Shown here piece after piece: positions 5,623 through 32,756 of a stretch of DNA of 64,000 bases; position 1 is the first letter of the stretch, and each line of letters begins with the position of its first letter. The stretch is from an uncultured Gammaproteobacteria bacterium (GTDB lineage: Bacteria; Patescibacteriota; Microgenomatia; Levybacterales; GWA1-39-11), in the NCBI GenBank assembly GCA_964531275.1, contig CAZHDZ010000006.1, positions 14,963 to 78,962 of the forward strand, written 5' to 3'. The notes beneath the pieces are model-generated. The model had not been told where the DNA came from. It saw nothing but the letters and a program-made list of their open reading frames with translations, and made no database searches. Position numbers and translations under genes: made by a program.

Positions 5623-7995
5623 CTAATTTGCCTGAGGCTTTATTGTTAGATTGTCGTTTTCTATTGTAATATGTCCTTTTTCACCAGAAATTAGATCGTG
5701 CGACAAAATCAATTTTGAGAGCTGATTTTCAACTGACTGTTCTATAAAACGACTTATGTTACGGGCTCCAAATTCTACGCTGTATGCATTTTTTGCAATA
5801 TAATCACACACTGCTGAATCAAAAGTTAGCAGTATTTGTTTTTCCTTCGTTTTTTCTACAATTTCTTCAAGGAATATCTTTGCAACTTGAGAAGCCTCCT
5901 CTTGGGTTAATGGATGAAAGACTATTACATCGTCAAAGCGATTTAAAAGCTCCGGCTTAAAAGTTCCACTTTGTAGAAGTTTTTCTAATAATTTGTCTTT
6001 CATATTTTCGAGTGCACCACTCTTAAACATTTCCCTAATGAATTCGCTTCCAGCATTTGATGTCGCGATAATAATAGTGTTATTGAAAGATACTGTCCTT
6101 CCAAGATTGTCTGTCAAACGCCCTTCATCTAGAATTTGAAGAAATAGATTAAGAATTGATGGATCTGCTTTTTCAAATTCATCGAGAAGTATTTCACTGA
6201 ATGGATTTGCTACTACTTTATCGGCAAGAGTATCCTGATTTCCGGAAGAACCCAAAAATCTTTCAACAGAATTTGAATTCTGGTACTCACTCATGTCTAA
6301 CCTGATCATATTGTTCTCTTCTCCAAAATAGGATGTCGCAAGAGCTTTTGCTGCCTCAGTCTTTCCAACACCTGTTGGTCCCAAGAATAAAAATGAAGCA
6401 ATCGGCTTATTCTCATCTTTAATTCCGGACCTAACTCTTCTCATAGCATCAGCTATCGCCTGTACTGCTTCATTTTGAGCAATAACTCTTTTGTGAATTG
6501 TTTGTTCTAGATTAAGAAGCTCTTTTGCTTCTGCATCAGTAGGCTCTGACAGAACAATTTGAGTTTTTGTCTGAATAAAGTCTCTCACGCTTTGGCTGTC
6601 TATGTGCTTAATGCCATGCGTTAGGCAATATGAAACAGTATCCTCAATAAGTCTTACTGCACGTCCGGGAAGACCAGTGCCATCATTTACATAAGAGTTT
6701 GATAATTTGCGTGCCTCTGAGATAGCAGAGTACATAATAGTAACGTTGTTAACGCTTTCAATTTCTTTGGATTTCTCAAGCAGCATGAAAAGCACTGTCT
6801 CCTCATCTGGCTCATCAATTTCTATCTCATCAAAAAGCTCCTTTATTTCGGTTTTTGGATAAATGAATGTTTTGTATGCCTCCTTGGTAGTACTTCCTAT
6901 AATTTTTATTTTGTTGCTCTTCAGATATTCTACTAACGATCCCGAAAAATCGATATTGAGCCCTCCGCCCCCAAACATATTCTCGATATTTGGAATATAG
7001 ACAATGATATTGCCGGCATGAAAAAGCTCTGAGAAAAGATTCACTATTCTCGCTTCTAAATCTCCTTGATTGTCTATCCCAGCAAGTAGCCTTTCAGGAT
7101 ACAACTTAAAAACCAGCTTATTTGAGACACTTTTTGGCAAGCTACCACTATTAGAATCCACAACCAACTCCTTAACCAAAGCAGTCTTTCCAACACCAGC
7201 ATCCCCAACAAGCATTGCGTTGCTTGATGAACTTTTTGAGAGTGCAGTCACTAGTAGATCGTATTCCCGGGATCTTCCAATTGTTAGAGTTTGGGTTGAG
7301 GACAGAACTTCTCTAGTAAAATCTTGTGCATATTGTGCAAGTTCCGCACTCCAACCATAGACGAAAAAATCAAAGACGCCTGCTCCGGTAAAATGGAGCC
7401 CATGGTGCTTAGGCATGTCGATCGAATATTGTCTCCTAACCCACGATAGGACAATAACGATATCTTTTTCGAATATTTCACTTTGAAATAGCGATTTATC
7501 TATCTCATCTTCCAATAAAAGATATGCAGCATATATATCAATTCCATGTATATTATTTCCTCCAACTGATTTGACGAGTTGGCCTGCCTTAAGAAGGACC
7601 TGCTCTTCATCAATGGTCATTTCGTTTCTTTTGTATGAATGTCCCAAAAGCCTATTAAAATATTTAATCTCGCTCGTATGTAAAAGGTTTCCCATAACAT
7701 CCTCAACTTTTGCAAAACGTTCTAGATGCGCCCTTGTTTTATAGTCAACAGCTTCAATGATATGTTTTACAGCATCATGAATTGTCCTTTGAGGGGGAGA
7801 ATTTTCCAGCTTAAAATGAATAAAAAATTCTTGAAGTATGAGGAAAAAATAGATAGGTAGTAATCGCATTATAAAAGCGACATCTGAAAGGTTGAAATAT
7901 ACAAGAATACCAATCCCGAAGAAAATCAGAACCCTCAACCAACGAATAATTGGGTTGTCAAAAAAATAATACAAATAATAATAGTTATTGTGCAT
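5623..7995 (-). CDS. Hsp100/Clp-family double-AAA+ ATPase with N-terminal transmembrane helices; D1 has Walker A (GDAGVGKTA) but lacks the Walker-B DE; D2 is intact (GPTGVGKTE, ILLDEFEKA, ATSNAG, GARN); no ClpP-binding IGF loop
   Basis: ORF track translation. Two hydrophobic helices in the first 60 aa. A ClpB/ClpC-like D2 with a C-terminal small domain. In D1 the sequence IVYIPNIENMF replaces the expected hhhhDE box. Confidence 0.75.
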   Translation of the reverse strand: MHNNYYYLYYFFDNPIIRWLRVLIFFGIGILVYFNLSDVAFIMRLLPIYFFLILQEFFIHFKLENSPPQRTIHDAVKHIIEAVDYKTRAHLERFAKVEDVMGNLLHTSEIKYFNRLLGHSYKRNEMTIDEEQVLLKAGQLVKSVGGNNIHGIDIYAAYLLLEDEIDKSLFQSEIFEKDIVIVLSWVRRQYSIDMPKHHGLHFTGAGVFDFFVYGWSAELAQYAQDFTREVLSSTQTLTIGRSREYDLLVTALSKSSSSNAMLVGDAGVGKTALVKELVVDSNSGSLPKSVSNKLVFKLYPERLLAGIDNQGDLEARIVNLFSELFHAGNIIVYIPNIENMFGGGGLNIDFSGSLVEYLKSNKIKIIGSTTKEAYKTFIYPKTEIKELFDEIEIDEPDEETVLFMLLEKSKEIESVNNVTIMYSAISEARKLSNSYVNDGTGLPGRAVRLIEDTVSYCLTHGIKHIDSQSVRDFIQTKTQIVLSEPTDAEAKELLNLEQTIHKRVIAQNEAVQAIADAMRRVRSGIKDENKPIASFLFLGPTGVGKTEAAKALATSYFGEENNMIRLDMSEYQNSNSVERFLGSSGNQDTLADKVVANPFSEILLDEFEKADPSILNLFLQILDEGRLTDNLGRTVSFNNTIIIATSNAGSEFIREMFKSGALENMKDKLLEKLLQSGTFKPELLNRFDDVIVFHPLTQEEASQVAKIFLEEIVEKTKEKQILLTFDSAVCDYIAKNAYSVEFGARNISRFIEQSVENQLSKLILSHDLISGEKGHITIENDNLTIKPQAN

Positions 7996-8746: not shown

Positions 8747-9112
8747 ATGAAAATACTGCTCGCGGAGGATGATCCATTCTTTCAAAATTTTTATTCCCGA
8801 AAATTATTAGAACATGGCTTTGAGGTAGATGTGGCGCATGATGGAAATGAAGCAATTGACAAGATATTCAAGCATACACCTGATGTTGTTCTACTTGACC
8901 TTATTATGCCGGGAAGAAATGGCTTTGAAGTACTCTCTGAAGTTTCAAAAAATAACACAATAAAAAAGCCTCCAATAATAGTATTTTCCACTCTAGGCCA
9001 AACTTCAGATATTGAAAAGGCAAAGCAATTAGGTGCAGTTACCTATATTAATAAAACCTTTTTCGATTTTGACAATTTATTATCTAAAGTAACAGCTGTT
9101 ATGAAAAACTAA
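8747..9112 (+). CDS. Single-domain CheY-like response regulator receiver
   Basis: MKILLAEDD...DVVLLDLIMPGRNGFEVL...TYINKTF: conserved Asp pocket, phospho-acceptor Asp, and Thr/Lys positions. Confidence 0.85.
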   Translation: MKILLAEDDPFFQNFYSRKLLEHGFEVDVAHDGNEAIDKIFKHTPDVVLLDLIMPGRNGFEVLSEVSKNNTIKKPPIIVFSTLGQTSDIEKAKQLGAVTYINKTFFDFDNLLSKVTAVMKN

Positions 9113-9119: not shown

Positions 9120-10808
9120 ATGATCCTGTCCGACGATCAAATCAAAGCATTAGTTCTAAAAACTGGTCTTGCTAATGACCAGACTCTTCAGGAGCTCGTT
9201 GAATTCGCGAAAAATTCAAATGTTACACTTGCCGATGCCTTAATAGAAAAAGATGTAATCTCTGATGAAAATCTTGGAATACTCATCGCTGACTTCCTCC
9301 ATATCCCATTTATAGTTCTTTCAAAACTCTCGATACCAGAAGATGTATTTAGAATTGTTCCTGAAAAAATTGCAAGAAAACATAAAGTTATTCCATTTGA
9401 AAAAACACAAGAAGGGTTAAAAGTAGCAATAGTTGACCCTAAAAAAGTTGAGGTTCTTCAGGCGATCAGCAAAAAAGCTGGAGTCAAAGTCATACCTTAT
9501 CTCACAACGGAGCGTGATGTTGAAAATATTCTCCGCATATACAAAAGAGATCTTCAAAAATCATTCGAGCAACTCCTACAAAAGGAGCTTGGTATAACTG
9601 ATATTTCAAAAGTTACTGATGCTGCTCCAATTGAAAAAATTGTTAACCTACTTGTTGAATTCGGATATCAAGATAAAGTATCCGATATTCATATAGAACC
9701 TGAAGAAAAGGATTCACTTGTACGTTTTAGAATCGATGGAATACTCCATGACGTACTTTACTTCCCTAAGAACTTTCATGAAAGAATTATCTCAAGAATA
9801 AAAATCTTGTCGAAATTAAGAACCGACGAGCATTTAAGTCCTCAGGATGGAAAAATGAGAATAAAACTTGATGAAGAAAATCTCGACATCAGAGTCTCAA
9901 TACTACCAATTGCAGACGGCGAAAAAGCAGTGCTTCGTTTGCTTGCTTCACATTTCAGACAGTTTTCCCTCATTGACCTTGGAATGAGTGAATCCGATCT
10001 GAAAAAAGTAACAGCAGCGTACAGCAAGTCGTATGGAATGGTCCTCTCAACTGGTCCGACAGGAAGCGGAAAGACAACCTCTATATACGCGATTCTAAAA
10101 ATTCTTAACACAAGAGAAAAAAATATTACAACGATTGAAGACCCTGTTGAATACAGAATAAAAGGAGTTAATCAAATCAATGTTAATGTCAAAACCGATC
10201 TTACCTTTGCAAATGGTCTTCGCTCTATTCTGCGTCAGGATCCAAATGTTGTTTTTGTTGGAGAAATCAGAGATGGTGAAACGGCTGGTATTGCTGTAAA
10301 TGCTGCTTTGACCGGACATTTAGTTCTGTCTACCCTCCACACGAATGATGCCGCAACCGCTCTTCCTCGTCTCATTGATATGAAAGTTGAGCCTTTTCTT
10401 GTTGCTTCCACAGTCAATGTCATTATCGCTCAAAGACTTATTAGAAAAATCTGCGATATGTGCAAAATGTCCTATACTATATTAAGAACGGACCTTGCTA
10501 AGAATCTCCCACCAAGCGTAATATCAAAGCATTTTGGTGAAAAAGAGAACATAAGCCTTTATCGTGGAAAGGGCTGCAAGATCTGTCATGCAACGGGATA
10601 TTCAGGAAGACTAGGACTTTTTGAAGTACTCGTGGTATCGAAAGAAGTTAAAGCTCTTATTACGGCAAAGTCGGACTCTGACGTAATTGCAAAAAAAGCT
10701 ATCGAAGAAGGAATGACTACTATGTTAAATGACGGAATAAATAAAGTTGCAAAAGGAACAACAACATTGGAAGAAGTGTTGAGAGTTACAAGGGTCGAAT
10801 CCGATTAA
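9120..10808 (+). CDS. pilB: Type IV pilus assembly ATPase PilB (GspE family) with N-terminal T2SSE_N domain
   Basis: Walker A GPTGSGKTTS, Asp box, His box, and tetracysteine-like motif CDMC...CKIC. N-terminal domain LADALIEKDVISDENL. Confidence 0.92.
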   Translation: MILSDDQIKALVLKTGLANDQTLQELVEFAKNSNVTLADALIEKDVISDENLGILIADFLHIPFIVLSKLSIPEDVFRIVPEKIARKHKVIPFEKTQEGLKVAIVDPKKVEVLQAISKKAGVKVIPYLTTERDVENILRIYKRDLQKSFEQLLQKELGITDISKVTDAAPIEKIVNLLVEFGYQDKVSDIHIEPEEKDSLVRFRIDGILHDVLYFPKNFHERIISRIKILSKLRTDEHLSPQDGKMRIKLDEENLDIRVSILPIADGEKAVLRLLASHFRQFSLIDLGMSESDLKKVTAAYSKSYGMVLSTGPTGSGKTTSIYAILKILNTREKNITTIEDPVEYRIKGVNQINVNVKTDLTFANGLRSILRQDPNVVFVGEIRDGETAGIAVNAALTGHLVLSTLHTNDAATALPRLIDMKVEPFLVASTVNVIIAQRLIRKICDMCKMSYTILRTDLAKNLPPSVISKHFGEKENISLYRGKGCKICHATGYSGRLGLFEVLVVSKEVKALITAKSDSDVIAKKAIEEGMTTMLNDGINKVAKGTTTLEEVLRVTRVESD

Positions 10809-10809: not shown

Positions 10810-11880
10810 ATGCAATTATTTAATAACTCCAACCCTAAATCGTTACGTATTAGCAGTACTGAAAAATTAGCATTGATCAGCAATCTTGCAACAATGCTAA
10901 CTGCAGGAATTCCTATTCTTGAAGTTGTGGATTCTCTTTTAGAGGATGCGAAAGGCAATCAAAGAAAACTTCTTGAATCACTGAAATTAGATCTTACCCA
11001 AGGAAATCATGTAGCAGATGCATTCGCAAAATTTCCTCGGGTTTTTGACAAGATTACCGTAAATCTCCTTAAGGCATCTGAAGAAGCAGGAACCCTAGAC
11101 GTAACGCTTATCGACTTGAAAGCTTCAATAAGAAAAGATTCTGAATTTTCAGACAAAATCAAAGGAGCACTTACGTATCCCGTACTTATTATGTTTGTTT
11201 TTATTGGAGTGCTACTTATGATCCTGGTTGTTGTTGTTCCAAAAATCTCAACGGTGTTTATGAGACTTAATGTAGAGCTACCACTACCTACCCAGATTCT
11301 TATCGCAATGTCTCAAGCGCTTACTCAATATACAATATTTGTAATTTTAGGAGCTGTAATATTTGTTGCTGGAATTTTTCTTCTATACAGAGAAAAGAAA
11401 AGAGAATTTCTTCACATACTCTTTATGCTACCCATCATATCCACCCTCGCAAAACAAATTGATCTGACTCGCTTTTCAAGAAGTCTTTACTTATTACTTA
11501 ATGCGGGTATTCCAATTGCAGCCGCATTAGAATTAACACAAGACGTTGTACTAAAACGTGAAGTTGCAGAATCAATTACGCATTGTAAAGAGGTTGTTCT
11601 TGCTGGTAGCCAGCTTTCGGAGGGACTTAAAAAAGCAAAGGGGATATTTCCAAGCATTATGATAAGAATTACTGAAGCAGGAGAGAAAAGCGGATCCCTA
11701 GATAAATCGATGCAAGATGTCTCTGAATATTTGGACTACCAAGTAGAAAAAACTCTCAAAACTCTTACAACTGTTCTAGAACCTATTATGCTTATTTTTG
11801 TTGGAATTGCGGTCGGAGGAATGATGCTTGCTATTATTGCTCCTATATATGGGCTTATTGGGCAAGTCACTACACGGTAA
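10810..11880 (+). CDS. pilC: Type IV pilus platform protein PilC (GspF family, two T2SSF repeats)
   Basis: Three TM segments with duplicated cytoplasmic domains. Position directly after pilB. Confidence 0.85.
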   Translation: MQLFNNSNPKSLRISSTEKLALISNLATMLTAGIPILEVVDSLLEDAKGNQRKLLESLKLDLTQGNHVADAFAKFPRVFDKITVNLLKASEEAGTLDVTLIDLKASIRKDSEFSDKIKGALTYPVLIMFVFIGVLLMILVVVVPKISTVFMRLNVELPLPTQILIAMSQALTQYTIFVILGAVIFVAGIFLLYREKKREFLHILFMLPIISTLAKQIDLTRFSRSLYLLLNAGIPIAAALELTQDVVLKREVAESITHCKEVVLAGSQLSEGLKKAKGIFPSIMIRITEAGEKSGSLDKSMQDVSEYLDYQVEKTLKTLTTVLEPIMLIFVGIAVGGMMLAIIAPIYGLIGQVTTR

Positions 11881-12365
11881 TGAAACTACAACGACAAGCT
11901 GGATTCACCTTAATTGAAATTTTATTAGTAGTTGGGATTCTGGGACTACTTTTCGGAATCGGGCTTTTAAGCATTGGCAACATCCAAGTAATCACTCAAA
12001 ATAATGCCTCTTCAACCCTGATAGTCTCAGATCTTAAGACACAGCAGATAAAGGCGATGGTTGGTGACACAGAGGGAAGAGGAATTCCGGATAACTATGG
12101 CATTAAAATTTTGACAGACAGATATATTTTATTCCACGGCATAAATTACAACGCAGCTGATACTGCTAACTTTTCAATTCCACTCGCATCCGGATATACA
12201 CTGAGCTCTACATTTCCCAATACAACAATTCTCTTTGCATCAAATAGTGGAGAGCTAGTAAACTTTGCTCAGGGCAGTGACACAATTACGGTAACCCATA
12301 CGTCATCAAGCAAGCAACAGGTTATTAGACTTAATAAATATGGAACTATTACAAATCTTCAATAA
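11880..12365 (+). CDS. Prepilin-type (pseudopilin/minor pilin) protein with class III signal peptide
   Basis: N-terminus MKLQRQAGFTLIEILLVVGILG: G-F-T-L-I-E with Glu at position +5 after the Gly cleavage site. Confidence 0.8.
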   Translation: MKLQRQAGFTLIEILLVVGILGLLFGIGLLSIGNIQVITQNNASSTLIVSDLKTQQIKAMVGDTEGRGIPDNYGIKILTDRYILFHGINYNAADTANFSIPLASGYTLSSTFPNTTILFASNSGELVNFAQGSDTITVTHTSSSKQQVIRLNKYGTITNLQ

Positions 12366-15276
12366 AAACCAAAAAGGCCAGATGCTCATAGAAATTCTTA
12401 TTGTCATTGCAATAAGTGCGATTATGCTCCCAGCACTACTCACTGGCCTTTTCTCATCAACTCAAGGAAAAGCACAACAGGGACAACGAGTACAAGCAAT
12501 CGCTCTTATGAAAGAGGCTGAAGAAGTAGTCAGAAACGTTAGAAACCAGAGCTGGCAAGCCTTTGCCACCAATGGCATTTATCATCCATTGATATCGGGC
12601 ACTACGTGGAATTTTGCATCAGGGAGTGAGACGGTAAATGGCTTGACTAGAACAATTACTGTTAGTGACGTTAGGAGAGATGCGAATGGAGCAGTTGTTA
12701 CTTCAGGCGGCAGCCTTGATCCTTCTACTAAGCGTGTCTATATTCAAGTGACCTGGGGTGAACCCTACGCTTCTTCTGTAGATTCTACTATTTACGTTAC
12801 AAGATTCCTACAAAATGCAGCCTCAACCCAAACAAGCATTAGTGACTTTAGCACCGGCACTTTTGCAACAACCGAATCATCGAATGTGTTGGGTGGAGAA
12901 ATTACGCTTTCAACCAATACGAAGGGTAAATGGTGCTCTCCCGCTTTTGCTGCAGCTACCATTACGCTCCCTGATGGTCCACCAGTTGCCGTTGCCGCGA
13001 CCTCAAGCGCAACCAGCATAACAATACCAAATCAAGCATTTGTAGCAACAGCCCCAACCCTTGCAACTTCAATTAAATTGGCGCATGTTACGGTGTCTGC
13101 TGATACCGATACTCAGACGACTTCTCTTCGAGGGAAATTCACTCTTGACCCAACCAAATACAGCAATGCCGGACTGGTGCCCTCAGGCATTGGACTAGAC
13201 AATAGTTTTAAAACAAATGCCATAAAATATTACAAATCGTCTTCGGGAAAAATGTATGCCCTTATAGCAACTACAAAACCTGACAGGGAGGTTATAGCAA
13301 TTTTAGTTGATGACAACAATAGCTCGAATGATAATACAAATACCGGCGAGTACCAAGATTATGTAAATGGAATTTATAAATATTGGACGTACTTTAATAC
13401 CAATACATACAACACTGCAGGAAATTTTGATACAGGATTTCAAAGTCCATCAGCAAATTCCGCAGACAGTGGAGGGGATGGGGATGGATTTACCAATGGT
13501 AGCAGGGCTTACTCAAATAATACCCAACAAGCAACAGATAGTAATAGCGGATCGGGGACAGGAACAAGCTGCACTGGGAGCGACAAGGACAAGCATCGAT
13601 TCTACAACTATGATTTTACTCTCCCAACAGGTGCTGCTATTTCCGGGATCGAAGTAAGACTTGATGCATGGGTTGAAAGCACATCCAATTCACCCACTAT
13701 GTGTGTTCAACTTTCCTGGGATGGGGGTACAACATGGACAACAGCAAAATCAACAACAACATTAACAACATCTCAATCAACATATCTGCTTGGAGGCTCG
13801 TCCGACACTTGGGGTCGGTCATGGGGAAGCACTGAGTTGAGCAATTCAAATTTTAGAGTTAGAGTGATTAATGTATCAAGCAGCACCTCAAGGGATTTTT
13901 CCCTTGATTGGGTGGCTGTAAAAGTTAATTATTCAGGTGGAACCCTAAATGACCAAGCCCCATTCGATTATGGAGCTACCTCTATTGCAGTTCTTGGAAA
14001 TCAAGGCTATGCAAGCTCTGGTGGATACCTTTACACCTTTGATTTATCAAACATCGACTCAAAATCCACCTCAGATGGTCTAGATATGGTAGGCTGCAGA
14101 ATACAGCTTGATGGGTACGACTGTAATCCCGGCTCCGGCACAGATAGAAAGTACGACCCTGGTGAATATGGGGCAAGCTGGTCTGATACAACTTCACCTG
14201 CCCACAATGACTGCTCTGATGGAGGAAATATAGAGCTGTATGGAACAAATGATATTTACCCAGTCCAGGTAGGCAGCAATACATATATTTATGCAGCGGT
14301 TGGTGCTGGTACAAATCCTGAGCTTAATATTGTAAATGCTACAAGCATACCAACCACAAGCACTACTCCCACAATTTCAGATAGTACGTGTGGGAGAGCC
14401 TCCGGAGGCAATACCGGATGGAAATTGGTCGGAAGCTATGACTTTAATACAGCCAATGGCACAGAAGAAGCTGCAAATTCTGTATATGCCAGCGCTGATG
14501 GAACGAGGGCTTATATATCATCCAATGGTGGCTCGGCCAGCAAGCAGCTTTATGTAATAAATACCTCCAGCAAAACCGCTCCCGCCTTCCTTTCAGGCAG
14601 TCCTTCAACTGGACCTCTAAGCGGATTCTACAGTGGAACTGGAGCAGATGCCGAACTGTATCCAAGACGTTCACTAACTGTTTTTAACGGTCAGAGAGCT
14701 GTGTTGGTTGGAAAAGATGGAACGGTAAATGGAAATAATGGGAAAGAATACCAAGTACTTAACATGAGCAATGAAGCCAACCCTACATACTGTGGGGGTT
14801 TGCAGTTCGATTCAGGATTTAATGACCTTACTGCTGTTTCGGAGTTAGACGGAGACAACTTTGTATACATGGTCGGAAATACAGTAGGAAATGAGTTGAA
14901 AATAATTCAAGGAGGTCCTGATGGCACCTACCTAAGCTCCGGAACGTATGAATCCTCTCCAAAGGATCTAGGTGCAAATGTAGCACTTAATAGATTTTCT
15001 GTAACTGCTACTGTCTCTGCTTCAACCATTCTTCAATTTCAAGTTGCTGCCACTCAACAAGTAAGTGGTTCTTGTGTTGGCGCAACATATACGTACGTTG
15101 GGCCAGATGGCACTTCAAGCACCTACTTCCCTTCAAGCGGAGGACCAATACCTTTGAGTGGAGTTGTTGGATTTGAAAATCCTGCACAATGCGTAAAGTA
15201 TAAAGCTTTTCTTTCAACAACAGACAACAATGTAACCCCTTCAATTCTTGACGCATCTTTTAATTTCTCACCGTAA
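12340..15276 (+). CDS. Giant prepilin-type protein (978 aa): class III signal peptide (KGQMLIEILIVIAISA) fused to a large Ser/Thr/Gly/Asn-rich extracellular region; candidate pilus tip adhesin
   Basis: ORF track. N-terminal prepilin motif with E at +5. Remainder is beta-rich with low-complexity ST-rich stretches and no further TM segment. Confidence 0.7.
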   Translation: MELLQIFNKNQKGQMLIEILIVIAISAIMLPALLTGLFSSTQGKAQQGQRVQAIALMKEAEEVVRNVRNQSWQAFATNGIYHPLISGTTWNFASGSETVNGLTRTITVSDVRRDANGAVVTSGGSLDPSTKRVYIQVTWGEPYASSVDSTIYVTRFLQNAASTQTSISDFSTGTFATTESSNVLGGEITLSTNTKGKWCSPAFAAATITLPDGPPVAVAATSSATSITIPNQAFVATAPTLATSIKLAHVTVSADTDTQTTSLRGKFTLDPTKYSNAGLVPSGIGLDNSFKTNAIKYYKSSSGKMYALIATTKPDREVIAILVDDNNSSNDNTNTGEYQDYVNGIYKYWTYFNTNTYNTAGNFDTGFQSPSANSADSGGDGDGFTNGSRAYSNNTQQATDSNSGSGTGTSCTGSDKDKHRFYNYDFTLPTGAAISGIEVRLDAWVESTSNSPTMCVQLSWDGGTTWTTAKSTTTLTTSQSTYLLGGSSDTWGRSWGSTELSNSNFRVRVINVSSSTSRDFSLDWVAVKVNYSGGTLNDQAPFDYGATSIAVLGNQGYASSGGYLYTFDLSNIDSKSTSDGLDMVGCRIQLDGYDCNPGSGTDRKYDPGEYGASWSDTTSPAHNDCSDGGNIELYGTNDIYPVQVGSNTYIYAAVGAGTNPELNIVNATSIPTTSTTPTISDSTCGRASGGNTGWKLVGSYDFNTANGTEEAANSVYASADGTRAYISSNGGSASKQLYVINTSSKTAPAFLSGSPSTGPLSGFYSGTGADAELYPRRSLTVFNGQRAVLVGKDGTVNGNNGKEYQVLNMSNEANPTYCGGLQFDSGFNDLTAVSELDGDNFVYMVGNTVGNELKIIQGGPDGTYLSSGTYESSPKDLGANVALNRFSVTATVSASTILQFQVAATQQVSGSCVGATYTYVGPDGTSSTYFPSSGGPIPLSGVVGFENPAQCVKYKAFLSTTDNNVTPSILDASFNFSP

Positions 15277-15279: not shown

Positions 15280-15786
15280 ATGAACCATAAATCAATAAAG
15301 ATGCACAAACAAAGAGGATTCACATTGGTTGAGCTACTTATCTACATGGGGCTACTAGTAATTATGATTGTTGTCTTCACGCAAATTTTTGTTTCGATTT
15401 TGGACAATCAGTTGAGATCTACTAATACTTCGAATGTTGCTGATGATGGAAGATATATTTATTCTAGATTCATTTATGATGTTAATAGGGCTGACTCAAT
15501 TGCTTCACCCTCAGCATATGGCAGCAGTTCTGCAAGCATGACTTTGGTAATTGACGGGATAGACAATACTTATTCTGCAACAAATGGAAGCCTCCTAGTA
15601 ACAACCCCGACAAATACTTTTATATTGAATGGATATGGATCAACAGTTACAGATCTAATATTCACTAAGGTCGGTTCCCCAAGCGCAAAAAGTACAGTAC
15701 GCATGAACTTTACAATCAGTGGAACAATTAATTCGCGTGGCTTAATAGATAGACAAGATTTTCAAACAACTGCCGGACTGAGATGA
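15280..15786 (+). CDS. Prepilin-type minor pilin/pseudopilin
   Basis: Near the N-terminus: KQRGFTLVELLIYMGLLVIMIVVF, a prepilin cleavage/methylation motif. Confidence 0.8.
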   Translation: MNHKSIKMHKQRGFTLVELLIYMGLLVIMIVVFTQIFVSILDNQLRSTNTSNVADDGRYIYSRFIYDVNRADSIASPSAYGSSSASMTLVIDGIDNTYSATNGSLLVTTPTNTFILNGYGSTVTDLIFTKVGSPSAKSTVRMNFTISGTINSRGLIDRQDFQTTAGLR

Positions 15787-16166
15787 TACATAACTTTCGC
15801 AATCAAAAAGGGCAAACGCTCGTTATTATGCTTACCTACATGGTAATAGCTGTTGTTGTTACAACTGCATCAATTGCTTTGGTTTTAAATAGCGCGAGCG
15901 GTACAGATAAAGTCTATCAGGGAACCAACTCCCTTGATATTGCAGAAAGTGGAGCAGAAACTGCTATGATAAAGTTACTAAGAAATCCGAATTATACGGG
16001 CGAGACATTGACAGTTGGAGGAGGCCAAGCAGTAATAACCATAACGGGCACCAATCCAAAAAAAGTTATTTCGAAAGGGACTCTCAACCATTTTACTCGT
16101 ACAATACAGGTGCTAGTAGATACAAGTAACAATACTCTCACTGCTATATCCTGGAAGGAAATCTAG
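15783..16166 (+). CDS. PilX-like minor pilin (hydrophobic N-terminus without Glu5, AESGAETAMIKLL motif)
   Basis: QKGQTLVIMLTYMVIAVVV followed by IAESGAETA, which resembles the PilX N-terminal region. Confidence 0.55.
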   Translation: MIHNFRNQKGQTLVIMLTYMVIAVVVTTASIALVLNSASGTDKVYQGTNSLDIAESGAETAMIKLLRNPNYTGETLTVGGGQAVITITGTNPKKVISKGTLNHFTRTIQVLVDTSNNTLTAISWKEI

Positions 16167-16175: not shown

Positions 16176-16874
16176 ATGGAATTTACAAAAAAACAACCTG
16201 CTTTTATTTATCTTGATAAAAATGGCTTCTACTTTTTTGAGAATGGCATGACCCAAGTAATAAGTCTCGCTTTCCTTGCAACTTCTGTAAAAGATATGGA
16301 CGTTATCAATGGTGGCTCGCTTATGACCCAGGTAAAAGGTTTTATAGATCAATATAAACTGTCCCCTGCGGCAGCCACCATAATCTTCTCTCCAAATATT
16401 ACCTTTGAAAAAGATATCGTTGATCTTGCCCATGATCAGCAGGAAGAAGAGATTAAAAAATTCTTAGAGACAGTTCCTTTCGACAGCGTGCTTTCAAAAG
16501 AGTATCCGATTAATAAAGGGGTTAAGATAATCGCGGTCAATGAGGATATATACATGGAACTTAAAATGGCATTTGAGAAAAACGCATGGAGCGTTGATAA
16601 CGCTGTAGCTTATCAAATGATGGGTCAAGATCAGACATTTATTCGCAATCTAACTCCAGACAACGCAGCACAACTCGTAAAGCGTCTTTATCACCTAAAA
16701 CAAGCAACACTTCTAACTGTTGAGAAAGAAAAATTCCAACCAATTGAAATGTCTTCTGACAATAAAAAGGAAATGACAAAAACAAAAAAAGTAAATGTTC
16801 GTCTCTTTGCCATGATTGGAATTTTCGGAATTCTTTTCGTTGTTCTGGGTTTTATGATAATTAACATGAAATGA
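16176..16874 (+). CDS. Hypothetical pilus-locus protein, ~205-aa cytoplasmic domain with a C-terminal TM anchor; possibly a reduced PilM-like component
   Basis: ORF track. C-terminal helix LFAMIGIFGILFVVLGFMIINMK. Sits between the minor pilins and the major pilin. Confidence 0.4.
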   Translation: MEFTKKQPAFIYLDKNGFYFFENGMTQVISLAFLATSVKDMDVINGGSLMTQVKGFIDQYKLSPAAATIIFSPNITFEKDIVDLAHDQQEEEIKKFLETVPFDSVLSKEYPINKGVKIIAVNEDIYMELKMAFEKNAWSVDNAVAYQMMGQDQTFIRNLTPDNAAQLVKRLYHLKQATLLTVEKEKFQPIEMSSDNKKEMTKTKKVNVRLFAMIGIFGILFVVLGFMIINMK

Positions 16875-17058
16875 GATTCTTAAATCTTTTTCTGATTTAT
16901 ATTTTTTTCTACAATCAGAAATAAAATCCTCACAAATTGCTATTGAAATCATGAAAAGAAAAATTAATATGAGATATTTTTTGGTTAATTTGAAGCAAAA
17001 GTTGCTCTTAAATTACCTATTGACAAGGTTTTTCAAATATGATTATCTTAATACAGAT

Positions 17059-17532
17059 ATGACAACTGCCCAGTTTAAAAATCAAAAAGGTTTCACACTC
17101 ATCGAGTTACTCGTAGTGATCGGAATCCTAGCCGTTCTTCTTGCTATCACTCTTATTGCTATCAATCCAGCGAGACAATTCCAACAGGCAAATGACACAA
17201 AAAGATCTTCTGACGTAAATGCTATTCTTAGTGCAGTCGGACAATATTCAGCAGACAACAAGGGAAATCTAACAGCTCTTGGAATCCCAACAGGAACAGC
17301 AGCGATTATCGGAGATGGAGTTGGACAAGTTGATCTTTGCGATGACATAGTCACACAATACATGGCTGCCCTACCTGTAGATCCATTAACGAATAACGGA
17401 GCCCCAGTAACTGATTGTACAGCTGCATACGATACGAATTACACAATTGTTCAAAGCGCTGCAAACAGCAGAATAACTGTAAGTGCTCCAGCAACTGAAA
17501 TCGGAGCTGTAGACATCTCAGTAACTCGATAG
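17059..17532 (+). CDS. pilA: Type IV major pilin (PilA-like) prepilin; start ambiguous (17059 gives leader MTTAQFKNQKG; in-frame ATGs at 16951 and 16969)
   Basis: KGFTLIELLVVIGILAVLLAITLIAINPARQFQQAND is a canonical type IVa pilin N-terminus. Mature length is about 145 aa. Confidence 0.8.
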   Translation: MTTAQFKNQKGFTLIELLVVIGILAVLLAITLIAINPARQFQQANDTKRSSDVNAILSAVGQYSADNKGNLTALGIPTGTAAIIGDGVGQVDLCDDIVTQYMAALPVDPLTNNGAPVTDCTAAYDTNYTIVQSAANSRITVSAPATEIGAVDISVTR

Positions 17533-17619: not shown

Positions 17620-18012
17620 ATGGATAAGAAGATACTCATTGCGGAAGATGATGAATTCCTAAGACAACTATATTCTGATGTCTTAAAAGGCGAAGGCTAT
17701 ACTGTCGATGTTGCCATAGATGGAGACGATGCCCTTCGCAAAATACAGGCAGGTGGATGGGATCTAGTGCTACTTGATATCATAATGCCCAAGCTCAGTG
17801 GTCTTGATGTTATGAGGAAGGCAAAGGAATCTCCTCAACCTTTAAATCAAAATAAATGCATAGTATTTCTCACCAACTTAGATAAGGGGGAAGAGATTAA
17901 GGAAGCATTAATTTTGGGAAATGGTTATCTCATAAAAAGTCAGATTACTCCAGGTGATTTGGTTAAAGAAGTTCAATTATATCTTACGCCTCAAGGACAA
18001 ACCGTTAATTAA
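17620..18012 (+). CDS. Single-domain CheY-like response regulator receiver
   Basis: MDKKILIAEDDEFLRQLY...DLVLLDIIMPKLSGLDVM... Confidence 0.85.
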   Translation: MDKKILIAEDDEFLRQLYSDVLKGEGYTVDVAIDGDDALRKIQAGGWDLVLLDIIMPKLSGLDVMRKAKESPQPLNQNKCIVFLTNLDKGEEIKEALILGNGYLIKSQITPGDLVKEVQLYLTPQGQTVN

Positions 18013-19418
18013 ATAGGAAGCGTAAATGAAAATGTCGCACCTTTTCCTTCCCCTTCTGATTCTACCCAGATGCGCCCATGATGTAATTCAATAAGATTTT
18101 TCGAAAGGTATAATCCTAGCCCTGATCCTTGGCCTGCTTGCTTCGTCAAATAACTACCACCTAGCATATTAAATTTCTTAAATAGCTTTTCCATATCCTC
18201 TGGTTTTATACCCATACCGGTATCGCGGACTTTAATAAGAACGCTTCCATCTTTTTCTTCACAGGTTACTGAAATACTGCCGTCTTTTACGGTAAATTTA
18301 AGAGCATTCCCTATTAGATTAATAAGAACTTGCTTAATTCTATCTGCATCAGCTGATATCACCGGCAAAGGCTCTGCCGGAACTGTTACAAATAATTTAA
18401 TGCCAAGTTCTGTTGATTTTGCTTGCATCTCCGCTATAACTTCCTGAACAAGAGTTACGATATTCATTGGCTTAGGATCAATTGTAAATCTTCCAGACTC
18501 AATACGAGAAATATTCAACATGTCATTTACCATATCAATAAGTCTATTTGTAGAATCGTATGATCTTTTAAGATATTCCATCTGCTGAGGGGTAAGCTCT
18601 CCGGTTTTTCCCTCTAAAAGAAGCCATACATATGACTTAATAACGGTCATTGGAGTTCTTAACTCATGTGATGCAAGAGAGACGAATTCATCCTTCAATT
18701 TATCTACTTGTTTTAATTTCTCGTTGGCATTTTGGATTGCTCGATACAAAAGGGCATTATCAACAGCAATACCAATAACACCAGTCAAGCGATCTATTAT
18801 GTCTTTCTCTGCTGGTGTCGCCTCTTCAAGCTTCTTCTCAAGCATCACAATCAAAGTTCCAATTACGTTATTACGGATTATAAGCGGCACTGCAAGTATT
18901 GACTGCACCCCGACCGAGCTTTGCAGCCGTACAAGCTCCTCTTTTGACTGACTACTTATGCCAAGGTCTTCTATGTTTGTAACAACCTGCATCTTTCTGT
19001 CAATTACTGTCTTAACAACGGGATTGATGCTTAAAGAAAGGGGTATTTCCTCAACGTAAAGCTTCCCTGTTTCACCTATTCCTGTGTATGCATCAGCTAG
19101 CGGCCTCAAGCTATTTTGGGTGGATAATTCATACACAGCAAGACCTCTAAATTCTGATTCGGCGACGATTAAATCGGCAACCTGTTGCGCAACTAAGTTT
19201 GGGTCAGTCACTGAAGAAAGAACAATAACGTCTATTTTTCGAAGCAGTGATAATGTCTTATTGCGTTCATTAAGCTCTACGTTCTTCTTATACATTTCCT
19301 CAGTTGCATGAGTAAGCTCACCCTGCAAACTTGATGTATCTTGAGTGGGCGTAAGCTCACCCTGAAGAGATGATGTATCCTGAGCTGGAGTAGGTGAATT
19401 AGGATTTTGCGGATCCAT
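18009..19418 (-). CDS. Cytoplasmic sensor histidine kinase: N-terminal 13-aa tandem repeat, GAF-like domain, HisKA (HELRTPMTVIKSY), HATPase_c
   Basis: H-box, N/G1/G2 boxes (LIGNALKFT, DTGMGI, GSGLGL). No TM segments. Confidence 0.85.
   Translation of the reverse strand: MDPQNPNSPTPAQDTSSLQGELTPTQDTSSLQGELTHATEEMYKKNVELNERNKTLSLLRKIDVIVLSSVTDPNLVAQQVADLIVAESEFRGLAVYELSTQNSLRPLADAYTGIGETGKLYVEEIPLSLSINPVVKTVIDRKMQVVTNIEDLGISSQSKEELVRLQSSVGVQSILAVPLIIRNNVIGTLIVMLEKKLEEATPAEKDIIDRLTGVIGIAVDNALLYRAIQNANEKLKQVDKLKDEFVSLASHELRTPMTVIKSYVWLLLEGKTGELTPQQMEYLKRSYDSTNRLIDMVNDMLNISRIESGRFTIDPKPMNIVTLVQEVIAEMQAKSTELGIKLFVTVPAEPLPVISADADRIKQVLINLIGNALKFTVKDGSISVTCEEKDGSVLIKVRDTGMGIKPEDMEKLFKKFNMLGGSYLTKQAGQGSGLGLYLSKNLIELHHGRIWVESEGEGKGATFSFTLPI
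19312..19389 (-). repeat. 2 x 39-nt tandem direct repeat encoding TPTQDTSSLQGEL twice at the kinase N-terminus
   Basis: Two near-identical 39-nt units (first 19312-19350) read directly in the sequence; the second unit is my own extension of the count and the least certain. Confidence 0.7.
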
Positions 19419-19768: not shown

Positions 19769-20566
19769 TTATTCGTAATTCTTAAATAACATTAAGCCGA
19801 CAGCCATGAGAGTAAAAGAGGTTGTAAACATCAGGTCATTAATCCCAGCATTATAGTATGAACCAGTTGCTGCCTGATAAAAGAATGTAAATTCAGTGAT
19901 GTATTCCATGACCAAAGCAACAACTATAAACAAGATCTTTGGCCTCATTATTCCACCAAGCATCTTGCGTGACAGACTATAAGTAGCAATTGCTATAGAT
20001 ATTGGAATGGCCAGTCCGAGTGGCGTTCCATAGTCTAAAAATGTTTTTACGGGATTTGAAAAATCATGAGGAGCATCTTTTACAAAAAAGAAGTACGAAA
20101 CACTTAACATTATTGCGGGAATCATTATTGCTACAAAACGGGCATTATTCTTTTTAAGGAAATATTTTGATCCCGCTGCTCTTGCAAAATGGTACATTCC
20201 AAGAGAGTACGTGATAATTGCTGAAAAATATCCAAAATCAGCTACGGAAGGGTAAGGAATCTCTACTTTTGCAACTAAATTATAATACGACCAAATTGTC
20301 TGTCCAAGCCAATAACCAAAAAGTCCGAGAGACAAGTAGATTATTCCCTTACCGATATGACTCTTAAAACCCCCCCACTTTTTAGCTATTATTATGCCAT
20401 AGATTCCTCCTAAAAGAGGAATAAGCGAATATGCAAAACCAAAAAGCATATTCTCATCACCCTCTTTAACGCCGGAAATAAAGATCTTAACCCACCACAA
20501 AACAAGGAGAATATAATAGGATATTAGAACTAAAAAAACTTTACTTTGAAAGATTTGTTTTATCAT
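19769..20566 (-). CDS. Polytopic membrane protein (about 7-8 TM), possible membrane sensor module for the downstream kinase
   Basis: Hydrophobicity pattern. Operon-like spacing with the 92-aa gene and the kinase. Confidence 0.5.
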   Translation of the reverse strand: MIKQIFQSKVFLVLISYYILLVLWWVKIFISGVKEGDENMLFGFAYSLIPLLGGIYGIIIAKKWGGFKSHIGKGIIYLSLGLFGYWLGQTIWSYYNLVAKVEIPYPSVADFGYFSAIITYSLGMYHFARAAGSKYFLKKNNARFVAIMIPAIMLSVSYFFFVKDAPHDFSNPVKTFLDYGTPLGLAIPISIAIATYSLSRKMLGGIMRPKILFIVVALVMEYITEFTFFYQAATGSYYNAGINDLMFTTSFTLMAVGLMLFKNYE

Positions 20567-27056: not shown

Positions 27057-27576
27057 TTGGCTCTACTCCTTGTACTTCAGGAATTGTATAAATTACCTTT
27101 GAAGCATCCTCAACATTCGTTCCTTTTTTAAAGGTGAGTGTATAAAAACTATTGAGAGTTGGGTCTGTGGTTTTTTCATAAATATGTGTCTCACTCGTTA
27201 CTCCAACACTTTCTAGGATTTTTTTAATCTCTGCTCTTCTTTTTGGATCTAATTCTTCCGGAGTTTTCCCTAATTGGTACGAAATCACTAATTCATCTTC
27301 AACATATAGTTCTTTATCTGGGAATGGGAGAAGTGTAGGCTTTGCAATTGGCACAGGAGTAGGAGTGATAGTCGTTTTGTTTGAGACGCCAATAGCGACA
27401 CCTACCGCACCCAAGAGCAGCAGAACAAATGCTATTGTAAGAATAATGACAATCTTTTTTTTATAGAAAGGTTTTGACTCCTGCGGCAACTGAGATTGAA
27501 TAGGTGCTTGAACCGGTGATTGGACAGTAGCGTTTGGATCCATATAGTACTTATGCTGGCTGCATTTGGGTGCCAT
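27031..27576 (-). CDS. Membrane-anchored protein resembling a free-standing subtilisin prodomain (inhibitor I9-like), paralogous to the N-terminal region of the adjacent subtilase
   Basis: ELVISYQLGKTPEE...FYTLTFKKGTNVEDASKVIYTIPEVQGVEPN aligns by eye with the subtilase N-terminus EIVVRFRDDYIPSD...FYTLKLRQGVDAINVQQELASVPFFYSSEPN. N-terminal TM. 26-nt overlap with the subtilase gene. Confidence 0.5.
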   Translation of the reverse strand: MAPKCSQHKYYMDPNATVQSPVQAPIQSQLPQESKPFYKKKIVIILTIAFVLLLLGAVGVAIGVSNKTTITPTPVPIAKPTLLPFPDKELYVEDELVISYQLGKTPEELDPKRRAEIKKILESVGVTSETHIYEKTTDPTLNSFYTLTFKKGTNVEDASKVIYTIPEVQGVEPNVKAILNQ

Positions 27577-30455: not shown

Positions 30456-32756
30456 CTAATTTGAAACGCCAGGAGGTCCACCTTGCCCCTCATCTTTTTT
30501 CTCCGGTGTTTCCTCTTCTGGAAGCTCTCTTTGCATTGTCATTTCAGCATGGCCCTCTTGGGTCTTGTTGTCAGCTCTATCAACCATTGTGTCATCCTCT
30601 TCCTTCTTACTATCAACGGACGTCATCACCGATTTTGCAGCTTCAAGTTTTGCCTTCAAGTAGGATACGACCTCAGTCTTAGAGAATCCTCCCAGGAGTA
30701 AAAATGGCAATATATTAGCCACTCTTTCCATTCCCTTATCTACATTCTCTTGGCTTTCTGAGCTAAGGAGATTGATCGTTTCCGTAATATTTTCAATGTC
30801 TGTCTGAAGGAAGGTATGCTTATCGGTTGGTATTCCATTCGCTCCGATTGGCGTCTCAATATTTTGATAATTTTCCTGCCACATTTTCTTAACATCCTCG
30901 TATTCTTCTATGCTCACTTGCTGAACTTGGTTTGTTTGAGGGAGTGAAACATCTTTAATTCCTGCTGTTGCTTGTGGTTTTTGACCAGGAATAACAGCTC
31001 TTGTCTTACTATTAACCTGCTCAGAGACACGAGAGGCCGACAATACATTGCCCGCAAGCTTATCACCTTGTTTTTGCTGAGAGATAAGTTTTTCTTTTAT
31101 TGTTGTAAATTTCTCCCTATCCATAGATCCCATAACGGTTGTAGGTTTTGAGATCTTCTCTAATGTTTCGTGGAAATTATTTACTTCGGTCTTTGAGACA
31201 GTGTCATGCTTTGTCATGGATGTTTCGTATCGAGCAATATCTCTCATCTTTGGAATTGAAAGATTAGCAAGCTTTAGCACATCCCTTGTCTCTCTTACTG
31301 TCTGCAAACTTGAGAGGGAGGCTCTTTCAATAGATGAAGTAGATGAAGATGTCTGGCTAGTGTTAGTGTTGGTGTTCGTATTCGTGTTGGTATTAGTATT
31401 TGTGTTGAGCTTCGAATTAAATATTGAACTTGAATTCGAATTTACCTTTGAAATTGTGTTTGTAGCCGAATTTGAGATGGTCCTCCCGGCAGGCATCTCC
31501 ATTGATCTTTTATTAAAGAATGGCAAAGCTTTTGCCATACCAAAAGGTGCAGGAACAGGCGGCGGAGAACCCGGAGGTGGGGGAGGATTTTGATAGGCCC
31601 GATTAAACCAGGAGTTATTCGTTATCTTCTTAACAACAGGGTTTTCAGAAATTGATACAGAGCTAAGATAATCAAGAAATATCTGCAACAAAAGGAATGG
31701 CAATAGAATAACAACCCAAAGCATGAGAAGTGCTACTACATATAACGCAAAGGTGTCGCTCAGATTTACAGAATTTGCTATATCTATTTGTTGTCCTGGG
31801 CCTCCAAGAAGAATATTGATTGCTGTGGGATAAGTCTGCTTTCCCCCTACGCTTGAGAAGTCAAAATACATAGGAATCCCACTTCTCCACACATTAACTA
31901 AGCCATGCAGAAATAATGCAAAAAGGGGTGCATAAAAAAGCCATCTGAAAAATTCCCCAATCCAAATTTTTGCTGTATTTCTAACCGGCCGGAAAAATAA
32001 TAATAAAGGAAACACTGGAGATACAATTAAGAAAAACCACAAGATAATTTTTCTAATAAGAAGAATTCCGGTCATCACATAGTAGGTAACAGCAGTAAGT
32101 TTAACCAACAGCAGAGATATAAATGCAGACTCATCAAACTCAATTCCAGGAATTCTATAACCAATAAAATTCTCGTAATCAAATGCGATGTAAAGAAGAT
32201 CTTCCGGTCCAATATTTTTTGTCACATTCGGATCTTCTAGGGAAGGCACCGATAAGAAGAATCCCTGGACAACGTCAGTTGCCTGATACATAAAGCGTAT
32301 AAGCCCATATGAAAAATAGATAAGAATAACTATTCCTATAAAAAGTGGGATGAATTTCATGACAGTTAGGTTCTGCCCGCGGGTTATTATCATTACAAAG
32401 GCAGCTCCAAGCACAAAAAGGCCCAGAAGGGCAAATACAACATAGGTAACCCTGCTCCAAAATTCTTGAATTGGATCTTGAGCGCCATTTGCGGGCAGCG
32501 TTATCCAACGGTAATTTTCTTCGGAGAGAGTCCACTTCAAAAAATCATTTGCACGTGTTGCAGTCTTACCAACAAAGGTAACCTCTTGATCTTTTACGAA
32601 GCTTGGTTGAGCACTTGTTGATGATGCTGCTATTTGAGCATCGGGAGAAAGTATGATTGAAGATTGCGCATTAGAAGTCCCAACGTAGCCTAAAAATCCC
32701 ATCGCAAAAAAAGCGATTACCAAAGCTATTTTAATCTTGGACAGTTTTTTTTGCAT
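30456..32756 (-). CDS. Large polytopic membrane protein (signal peptide, ~80-aa extracytoplasmic domain, 6 TM, ~400-aa low-complexity C-terminal region with an (NT)8 repeat and a PPPPPGSPPP stretch); topology resembles VirB6/TrbL-family proteins
   Basis: Hydrophobicity layout from the translation. The VirB6-like assignment rests on architecture only, not on a recognised sequence motif. Confidence 0.45.
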   Translation of the reverse strand: MQKKLSKIKIALVIAFFAMGFLGYVGTSNAQSSIILSPDAQIAASSTSAQPSFVKDQEVTFVGKTATRANDFLKWTLSEENYRWITLPANGAQDPIQEFWSRVTYVVFALLGLFVLGAAFVMIITRGQNLTVMKFIPLFIGIVILIYFSYGLIRFMYQATDVVQGFFLSVPSLEDPNVTKNIGPEDLLYIAFDYENFIGYRIPGIEFDESAFISLLLVKLTAVTYYVMTGILLIRKIILWFFLIVSPVFPLLLFFRPVRNTAKIWIGEFFRWLFYAPLFALFLHGLVNVWRSGIPMYFDFSSVGGKQTYPTAINILLGGPGQQIDIANSVNLSDTFALYVVALLMLWVVILLPFLLLQIFLDYLSSVSISENPVVKKITNNSWFNRAYQNPPPPPGSPPPVPAPFGMAKALPFFNKRSMEMPAGRTISNSATNTISKVNSNSSSIFNSKLNTNTNTNTNTNTNTNTSQTSSSTSSIERASLSSLQTVRETRDVLKLANLSIPKMRDIARYETSMTKHDTVSKTEVNNFHETLEKISKPTTVMGSMDREKFTTIKEKLISQQKQGDKLAGNVLSASRVSEQVNSKTRAVIPGQKPQATAGIKDVSLPQTNQVQQVSIEEYEDVKKMWQENYQNIETPIGANGIPTDKHTFLQTDIENITETINLLSSESQENVDKGMERVANILPFLLLGGFSKTEVVSYLKAKLEAAKSVMTSVDSKKEEDDTMVDRADNKTQEGHAEMTMQRELPEEETPEKKDEGQGGPPGVSN
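31358..31408 (-). repeat. Short tandem GT-rich repeat encoding (Asn-Thr)8 within the 766-aa membrane protein
   Basis: Plus-strand tgttagtgttggtgttcgtattcgtgttggtattagtatttgtgtt; translated on the minus strand as NTNTNTNTNTNTNTNT. Confidence 0.6.

Follow-up and report, generated by a model that had tools for sequence, protein, structure and literature searches.

Modular pilins, which join a pilin module to domains that are not specific to type IV pili (T4P), present adhesive modules, probably at the tip of the filament (Raynaud et al. 2021, PMC8179133). The survey in that study lists more than 1,200 such proteins, among them an 860-amino-acid (aa) Falkowbacteria protein with 12 IPR013211 motifs. 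As IPR013211 is the LVIVD repeat, pilins with this repeat from the candidate phyla radiation (CPR) have already been catalogued. In S. sanguinis, the lectin module of PilC binds glycans, and the protein has been modelled in a PilA-PilB-PilC tip complex (PMC9934059). In Patescibacteria, where pilins are reported to be poorly conserved, the minor pilin PilX2 of TM7x has a seven-bladed propeller and is needed for normal host binding; its deletion halves early binding and leaves competence unaffected (PMC12206443). Here, we describe a 978-aa modular minor pilin, the giant pilin, encoded in a 64,000-nucleotide (nt) stretch of contig CAZHDZ010000006.1 from an uncultured bacterium of the Microgenomatia (the window; all coordinates are positions of this stretch). 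The giant pilin is a genuine, widely conserved pilus subunit of a Microgenomates bacterium, and we consider it likely that it acts as an adhesin within the complex that forms the tip of a type IV pilus or primes its assembly.

A class III signal on a 978-residue protein

An initial annotation, made from the sequence alone, had called a 978-aa open reading frame (ORF) at 12340-15276 whose N-terminus has Gly at -1 and Glu at +5, and this reading holds. The protein begins MELLQIFNKNQKGQMLIEILIVIAISAIMLPALL, which divides into the leader MELLQIFNKNQKG and the mature start QMLIEILIVIAISAIMLP; the mature form is computed to have 965 aa, a mass of 101 kDa and a pI of 4.6. The leader is short, hydrophilic and ends in G13 at -1, followed by Gln14 at +1, Glu18 at +5 and a hydrophobic stretch spanning residues 14-35. 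In an alignment of 55 orthologues, G13 is kept in 51 sequences, Q14 in 47, E18 in 54 and P31 in all 55, while the length and sequence of the leader are free to vary. A motif used for recognition and packing is expected to look like this, with G-1 and E+5 near-invariant beside a variable leader. A six-frame motif scan of the window found class III signals only in pilus operon genes. Scans against NCBIfam gave weak, helix-level matches to ComGE and GspK and no match to TIGR02532; some orthologues (P0038, P0463 and P0468) do carry the Pfam N_methyl domain PF07963.

The tail of about 940 aa had been described as rich in Ser, Thr, Asn and Gly, as predicted to be beta-structured and as containing several Cys. 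All of this is borne out. The four residues make up 42.5% of residues 40-978, compared to 23.7% in nine housekeeping proteins of the window, and charged residues account for 14.3% versus 25.6%. Lys and Arg together account for 5.8% of the mature protein. Ten Cys (199, 411, 455, 586, 595, 625, 684, 818, 912 and 951) are invariant in all 55 orthologues. Across the window, G+C content ranges from 35 to 42%, and the giant pilin region is the highest (42.5%).

A predicted propeller on a pilin module

An AlphaFold2 model built on the 55-orthologue alignment (mean predicted local distance difference test score, pLDDT, 85.1; predicted template modelling score, pTM, 0.67) consists of a helix at residues 14-70 and a small sheet at 79-164, after which the chain is entirely beta. 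The extended alpha1 helix with an antiparallel sheet is the 'lollipop' shape of type IV pilins. Onto this is grafted a predicted extracellular head of about 800 aa, composed of a seven-bladed propeller, a nested jelly roll, a Cys-rich loop and a C-terminal sandwich (Table 1). Structure prediction of the C-terminal 900 aa, proposed in the initial annotation as a check for binding folds, thus returned a propeller and a nested lectin-like or carbohydrate-binding-module (CBM)-like jelly roll, folds that are typical of binding modules.

Judged by its orthologues, the predicted seven-bladed propeller appears homologous to LVIVD-repeat propellers. The window protein has no direct Pfam match to LVIVD (PF08309), but orthologues in the same operon slot match it at 25.9-45.7 bits, above the cut-off of 20.2. 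No Pfam match to RCC1 was found on the giant pilin. Searching with the whole model, Foldseek returned only propeller matches of low TM-score (phage nozzle proteins and DDB1) that are uninformative beyond the word propeller, and searches of PDB sequences with the protein and with the 55-sequence profile yielded nothing significant. As Cys199, 818, 912 and 951 are invariant even in short forms of the protein, whereas the other six Cys lie in inserts, we infer from conservation that one disulfide probably closes the propeller, one lies in the C-terminal sandwich and the rest form inside the inserts. The predicted pairings would be 199-818, 411-455, 586-595 or 586-625 with partners, and 912-951. 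In the sandwich, C912, C951, N947, P948 and P967 are invariant across length classes.

A profile search sorts relatives into three classes

An exhaustive profile search of 1.84 billion representative sequences sorted the relatives into three classes. Class (i) comprises full-length proteins of about 970-1016 aa. In class (ii), numerous proteins measuring about 620-700 aa align with both ends of the profile (positions 5-265 and about 700-986), skip its middle and reach E-values of 1e-100 or lower. They originate from Levy-, Gottesman-, Woese-, Ames- and Roizmanbacteria, occupy the same operon slot and match Pfam LVIVD with E-values of 1e-6 to 1e-12. Their homologous ends and identical operon slot identify them as orthologues without the insert. 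Compared with class (ii), the window protein has a large insertion at residues of about 330-545 and the Cys-rich loop at about 576-640. Class (iii) consists of many proteins of unrelated architecture that match only profile positions of about 355-530.

Same-slot orthologues come in sizes of about 650 aa (no insert), about 800 aa, 897 aa (LamG insert) and about 980 aa, and one of 1027 aa has a second propeller. The 897-aa protein (P0159) carries a Laminin_G_3 insert (102 bits); we rejected the idea that LamG occupies the jelly-roll site, as the alignment places the P0159 insert in a different propeller loop. By regular expression, an Asp-box was present in 44 of 71 loci and absent from 27, about 20 of which encode the forms of about 800 aa.

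The nested module corresponds to class (iii). It holds a textbook Asp-box (S459-W-D-G-G-T-T-W466) and is predicted to adopt a beta-jelly-roll fold whose nearest neighbours are carbohydrate-binding modules and lectins, specifically CBM32 or galactose-binding-domain-like jelly rolls and Asp-box reelin subrepeats, at 5-20% identity. By sequence, residues 353-537 have no Pfam or NCBIfam match and belong to no CBM family. Even so, 1113 proteins match the module at E<1e-5, often with 50-70% identity, and the named carriers belong to Anaerolineae/Chloroflexota and Micromonosporaceae (Actinomycetota). In these other phyla it is typically the last domain of multidomain secreted proteins, ending in ...V.YQP and following a PT linker (P0279, P0287, P0303, P0320, P0348 and P0375), and in some orthologues PT-rich linkers flank it on both sides. 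Its partners include M14 peptidase, CBM2, CBM96, PKD, Big_2, Big_5, cadherin-like, Kelch, TIG and subtilase domains. Residues invariant across phyla include several Asp and His as well as Trp-rich motifs (WGRxW, FRVR and DW). We propose the module as a candidate new domain family, possibly binding envelope components or glycans.

The giant pilin is conserved throughout Microgenomates

A word-indexed search found 661 homologues. The best 120 are 955-1035 aa long, cover 96-100% of the query at 55-84% identity and are colinear with it, one 865-aa fragment aside; those with names belong to Patescibacteria, Microgenomates or Levybacteria. The same gene order was found in a Levybacteria metagenome-assembled genome (MAG) and in a closed 928-kb Microgenomates genome. 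Scanning GTDB species representatives gave 73 loci, the named ones from Levyibacteriota, Woesebacteria, Gottesmanbacteria, Shapirobacteria and Microgenomates. The large ORF is present at 71 of them, and 68 of these 71 have G-x4-E near the N-terminus. Almost all of the 71 loci have a pilin of about 160 aa upstream and, downstream, a GFTLxE pilin of about 165 aa, a Glu5-less protein of about 125 aa and a protein of 220-400 aa; most also have PilC and PilB upstream. Every orthologous operon examined has one giant pilin of 620-1070 aa, so the remark that pilins of this size are rare fails within Microgenomates.

Most of the GTDB-representative MAGs with the operon are titled 'uncultured Gammaproteobacteria bacterium' or 'Pseudomonadales' (bulk assemblies deposited as third-party annotation, TPA) and a few 'Saccharimonadales' (L009-L081). 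The Patescibacteria-type operon at the same loci makes it almost certain that such titles are wrong, and we disregarded them, basing taxonomy on named relatives.

The propeller and module average 64-73% identity to the window protein, compared to 54-56% for the helix and pilin head. We also considered a diversity-generating retroelement acting on the gene and rejected it, as there is no template/variable repeat pair and the module is conserved.

The giant pilin gene lies in a pilus operon

The operon runs in the order pilB, pilC, pilin, giant pilin, pilin, pilin without Glu5, a PilM/N-like slot and the major pilin (Table 1). The pilin module and the placement within a minor-pilin cluster between pilB/pilC and the major pilin agree with the earlier suggestion of a minor-pilin-linked adhesin; its tip location, cleavage and adhesive role are putative. 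The start of the giant pilin gene overlaps the upstream pilin gene by 26 nt (12340-12365), and another 4 nt (15783-15786) are shared by the genes of the 168-aa and 127-aa proteins; such tight coupling is consistent with co-translation of the minor-pilin set. Typing of the three small minor pilins as H, I, J or K was dropped, as phmmer searches of PDB and NCBIfam scans matched only their N-terminal helices.

No Pfam or NCBIfam model matches the 127-aa pilin-like protein. In the orthologous slot, residue +5 can be I, T, M, V or L, and Glu5 is absent in most related operons; this is the hallmark to be expected of a subunit that enters a priming complex first and sits at its top. The 232-aa protein that follows has no significant match to a Pfam or NCBIfam family. 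Its slot holds proteins of 220-400 aa in other loci, one of them with a weak LytR_C match, and in the window the protein stops right after its transmembrane (TM) helix, so that the extracellular part appears dispensable or lost here. In the mechanical ORF, 36 additional N-terminal residues precede the major pilin, whose true start is probably the ATG at 17059; starting there gives a 10-aa leader, MTTAQFKNQKG/FTLIE, as in relatives.

The PilB of this operon contains an MshEN domain, a type of domain that binds cyclic di-GMP. The operon is framed by two CheY-like response regulators, and a histidine kinase gene is directly adjacent. In relatives (L001 and L006), too, response regulator, Hpt and kinase genes are found with it, which suggests conserved two-component control of piliation.

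Table 1. Coordinates of the pilus operon, its flanking regulators and the segments of the giant pilin in the window. A slash marks the predicted cleavage site.
Feature	Position	Strand	Basis and remarks
Single-domain CheY-like response regulator	8747-9112	+	
PilB-type assembly ATPase	9120-10808	+	Pfam T2SSE 424 bits, MshEN 53 bits
PilC-type platform protein	10810-11880	+	Pfam T2SSF 156 bits
Upstream minor pilin, 161 aa (AG/FTLIE)	11880-12365	+	N_methyl 25.3 bits; weak GspH/ComGD-like N-terminal NCBIfam matches
Giant modular minor pilin gene	12340-15276	+	978 aa, ATG start, uninterrupted frame; mechanical ORF list
Leader peptide, aa 1-13	12340-12378	+	Ends in Gly-1; predicted prepilin-peptidase site G13/Q14, putative cleavage
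Pilin alpha1 helix, aa 14-70	12379-12549	+	Glu+5 (E18), invariant Pro31; AlphaFold2; weak N_methyl, ComGE and GspK N-terminal matches
Small beta-sheet pilin head, aa 71-165	12550-12834	+	AlphaFold2 strands 79-164, pLDDT about 75-91; kept in 650-aa orthologues
Linker and N-terminal propeller blades, aa 166-352	12835-13395	+	Includes invariant W198-C199-x-P201
Nested Asp-box jelly-roll module, aa 353-537	13396-13950	+	Predicted CBM32/lectin-like fold; Asp-box S459-W-D-G-G-T-T-W466; Cys411, Cys455
Remaining propeller blades, aa 538-870	13951-14949	+	Cys-rich inserted loop aa 576-640 (nt 14065-14259; Cys586, 595, 625)
C-terminal beta-sandwich, aa 871-978	14950-15273	+	AlphaFold2 strands 875-977; Cys912, Cys951; conserved C-terminal ...NYSP; kept in all length classes
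Downstream minor pilin, 168 aa (RG/FTLVE)	15280-15786	+	N_methyl 30.4 bits; position conserved in related loci
Pilin-like protein, 127 aa (KG/QTLVI)	15783-16166	+	Gly-1, Ile at +5 instead of Glu
232-aa protein, C-terminal TM helix, PilM/N-like slot	16176-16874	+	Putative role, from position only
Major pilin candidate (KG/FTLIELLVVIGILAVL)	16951-17532	+	N_methyl 38.6 bits; GspG/ComGC-like matches; N-termini of relatives near-identical
Second single-domain response regulator	17620-18012	+	
Histidine kinase	18009-19418	-	

A model for assembly and attachment

We propose that the prepilin would insert in the membrane via alpha1N, after which a prepilin peptidase would cut after G13. The giant pilin and the three small minor pilins would then jointly prime assembly of the filament on PilC, with PilB providing the power. 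The 127-aa subunit, which has no Glu5, would probably enter first; it is the likeliest first subunit because the topmost subunit needs no Glu5 salt bridge. The major pilin would subsequently polymerise beneath the priming complex, so that in this mechanism only the pilus tip has room for the bulky head. In that position, the propeller and the lectin-like module are probably displayed for attachment. Their ligand would be exposed on a surface, with a glycan of a host cell, partner cell or substrate the likeliest choice, and binding it would tether the ultrasmall cell. Such an arrangement has been proposed for modular pilins in general and modelled for PilA-PilB-PilC of S. sanguinis. The lectin-like folds, a jelly roll here and LamG in an orthologue, point to a glycan. 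The inserts in the propeller scaffold (none, Cys-loop, jelly roll, LamG or second propeller) would vary what is presented. PilD is reported to be widespread in CPR, where an MdbA-like disulfide oxidoreductase family is also enriched (PMC6744442); both are consistent with processing of the giant pilin and with its invariant Cys.

A more far-reaching version of this model is that the propeller serves as a plug-in platform across Microgenomates, and that the jelly roll is a very slowly evolving envelope- or glycan-binding domain that Chloroflexota and Actinomycetota use as well. We regard this version as speculative and rather doubtful. Were the pilus tip of an epibiont to carry the very domain by which its potential hosts keep proteins attached to their cell walls, the pilus would recognise the host envelope polymer directly, and the modules present would predict the host range of uncultivated Microgenomates.

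Weighing the alternatives

Several observations weigh against a tip adhesin. The N_methyl profile PF07963 scores 15.5 bits on the giant pilin, below its gathering cut-off of 21.2, and position +1 is Gln, not Phe or Met. The prepilin leader, which had been called bona fide, is thus upheld by motif conservation, structure and gene context but not by the profile; because the score falls below the curated threshold, the call rests on those three. Pfam scans of 38 ORFs found neither PilD (the prepilin peptidase) nor PilT in the 64-kb window. The CBM-like fold is generic. The head is conserved above the pilin part, unlike in fast-evolving, host-specific adhesins. Finally, the giant subunit is probably not the very first one, as it keeps Glu5, whereas the GspK tip cap and the neighbouring 127-aa protein are without it. 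The sub-threshold N_methyl score, the non-canonical Gln and the lack of a PilD gene in the window would suit a membrane-anchored surface protein that uses the pilin-like helix as a mere signal-anchor and displays its head on the cell, unpolymerised. This seems improbable to us: the conservation of Gly-1 and Glu+5 beside a variable leader is the signature of peptidase recognition and filament packing, the predicted 57-residue alpha1 and beta-sheet pilin head are kept in all length classes, and the gene is fixed within the minor-pilin cluster in about 70 genomes. The conserved head would suit a universal ligand such as DNA, which raises the question of whether the giant pilin is the DNA receptor of a competence pilus that captures extracellular DNA at the tip, like Thermus ComZ, and feeds it to the uptake machinery on which CPR bacteria are thought to depend. 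A connection between type IV pili and competence systems has been drawn for CPR (PMC6744442), a large minor pilin that bears additional beta-domains can be a DNA receptor (ComZ, cited in PMC8179133), and in the closed Microgenomates genome the orthologous cluster is followed, about 6 kb downstream, by DprA. Set against this, the acidic, Lys/Arg-poor composition of the mature protein is unfavourable for DNA binding, the closest folds of the nested module are carbohydrate-binding modules and lectins, one orthologue has a lectin-type LamG insert, and the propeller-bearing PilX2 pilus of TM7x contributes to host binding and is dispensable for competence. We therefore consider a DNA receptor unlikely.

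A tip subunit of a pseudopilus resembling that of the type II secretion system (T2SS), analogous to GspK, with a head that gates or recognises secreted substrates rather than adhering, appears very unlikely. Relatives are labelled 'type II secretion system protein' or 'PulG', but such source names are generic for any N_methyl protein. The giant pilin is the largest of four clustered minor pilins, like GspK among HIJK, and it has a weak N-terminal match to GspK in NCBIfam; this match scores 12.9 against a cut-off of 130 and covers the helix only, and Glu5 is present, unlike in GspK. Moreover, CPR bacteria have neither the secretin PilQ nor a Gram-negative envelope, leaving no obvious place for a periplasmic piston. 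As for an assembly or sequencing artefact that fused a small pseudopilin gene to a downstream gene, which the initial annotation had named as a caveat, the chance of this is close to nil. The frame is continuous, with no break near 12480-12600, and the conserved columns Q46, R50, W72 and W90 cross this proposed junction in all relatives, 650-aa forms included. The 120 top homologues are colinear over 96-100% of the length, and the fusion recurs in independent assemblies, including the closed genome, and at the 71 species-level loci, which refutes such an origin. Lack of conservation in relatives, the other caveat, is ruled out by hundreds of homologues and by a gene order common to about 70 species-level genomes. 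A modular minor pilin that acts as an adhesin at the pilus tip thus remains the reading that we favour.

Other features of the window

The window encodes two ClpB/ClpC-like AAA+ paralogues on the reverse strand, of 790 aa (5623-7995) and 961 aa (27551-30436). Their Walker regions account for its only sizeable direct DNA repeat (6347-6411 versus 28776-28840; 65 nt, 78% identity). DnaK, DnaJ, HrcA and GroEL are also encoded, and no tRNA or tmRNA genes were detected in the 64-kb window. Five large ORFs have no Pfam match at all: 30456-32756 (-, 766 aa), 33143-35242 (-, 699 aa), 46611-48146 (-, 511 aa), 59837-61588 (+, 583 aa) and 19769-20566 (-, 265 aa). Their neighbours include surface proteins with PKD, fn3 and PEGA/SH3 domains (51734-52852, 58427-59821 and 41895-42842), and these ORFs may encode further uncharacterised envelope proteins.

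Comparison with known pilus systems

This family bears on how the abundant, uncultivated Microgenomates locate partner cells and stay attached to them. It constitutes a conserved, one-per-operon pilus subunit of 65-110 kDa whose distal domains are obvious candidates for the contact surface. The giant pilin and its 185-aa module offer an experimental handle on attachment in this group, and they flag a widespread Pfam-less domain common to surface proteins of Chloroflexota and Actinomycetota.

The giant pilin joins a pilin module to an LVIVD-related propeller and to a jelly roll that recurs in over 1000 proteins other than pilins. Neither domain is specific to T4P, and the giant pilin belongs to the published class of modular pilins. 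It would have escaped the survey of Raynaud et al., as both its pilin motif and its modules fall below Pfam thresholds; surveys by sequence signature thus undercount modular pilins. Like PilB (vWA) and PilC (Ig and ConA-like lectin) of S. sanguinis, it has a class III signal and a small pilin module carrying a bulky binding module. As in that system, it is a minor pilin encoded with a few others in a monoderm-type T4P operon, there modelled at the tip, and a lectin-type module suggests glycan binding. Unlike PilB and PilC, which have one or two modules in series, its graft is nested and about 800 aa long, an architecture known here from sequence and prediction.

The closest experimental precedent within Patescibacteria is PilX2 of the T4P-2 of Nanosynbacter lyticus TM7x (Saccharibacteria). 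Both are large minor pilins from the same superphylum, with an N-terminal hydrophobic helix, a seven-bladed propeller and a proposed role as adhesins. The description of PilX2 sets the two apart, as its propeller is of the RCC1 type, whereas that of the giant pilin is LVIVD-related. Furthermore, PilX2 has no predicted PilD signal, in contrast to the conserved Gly-1 and Glu+5 here, and as described it is without the additional nested CBM-like module and C-terminal sandwich.

In PilY1/PilC of diderm type IVa pili, a propeller likewise acts as a carrier for variable binding modules at a tip with four minor pilins. Membership in this family was rejected, as it is defined by a PilY1-type C-terminal propeller domain (Neisseria_PilC/IPR008707) in a non-pilin protein, which is not what the giant pilin has. 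GspK/PilX-type proteins are likewise the biggest member of a set of four clustered minor pilins; they bear an additional domain on the pilin fold and are expected to cap the priming complex. GspK has no Glu5 and an alpha-domain inserted in the pilin sheet, whereas the giant pilin keeps Glu5 and has a C-terminal, all-beta head; assignment to the GspK-type minor pseudopilins (NF037980) was rejected on the score, the helix-only coverage and the Glu5 given above. With CBM32 and galactose-binding jelly rolls, the nested module shares the predicted fold and no sequence-level CBM membership, and it may, going by the modelled structure, bind sugar. What is new relative to all of these systems is an uncharacterised Microgenomates-wide family, the nesting of its domains together with the insertion variants, and a jelly-roll domain with an Asp-box that has no annotation and is common to other phyla.

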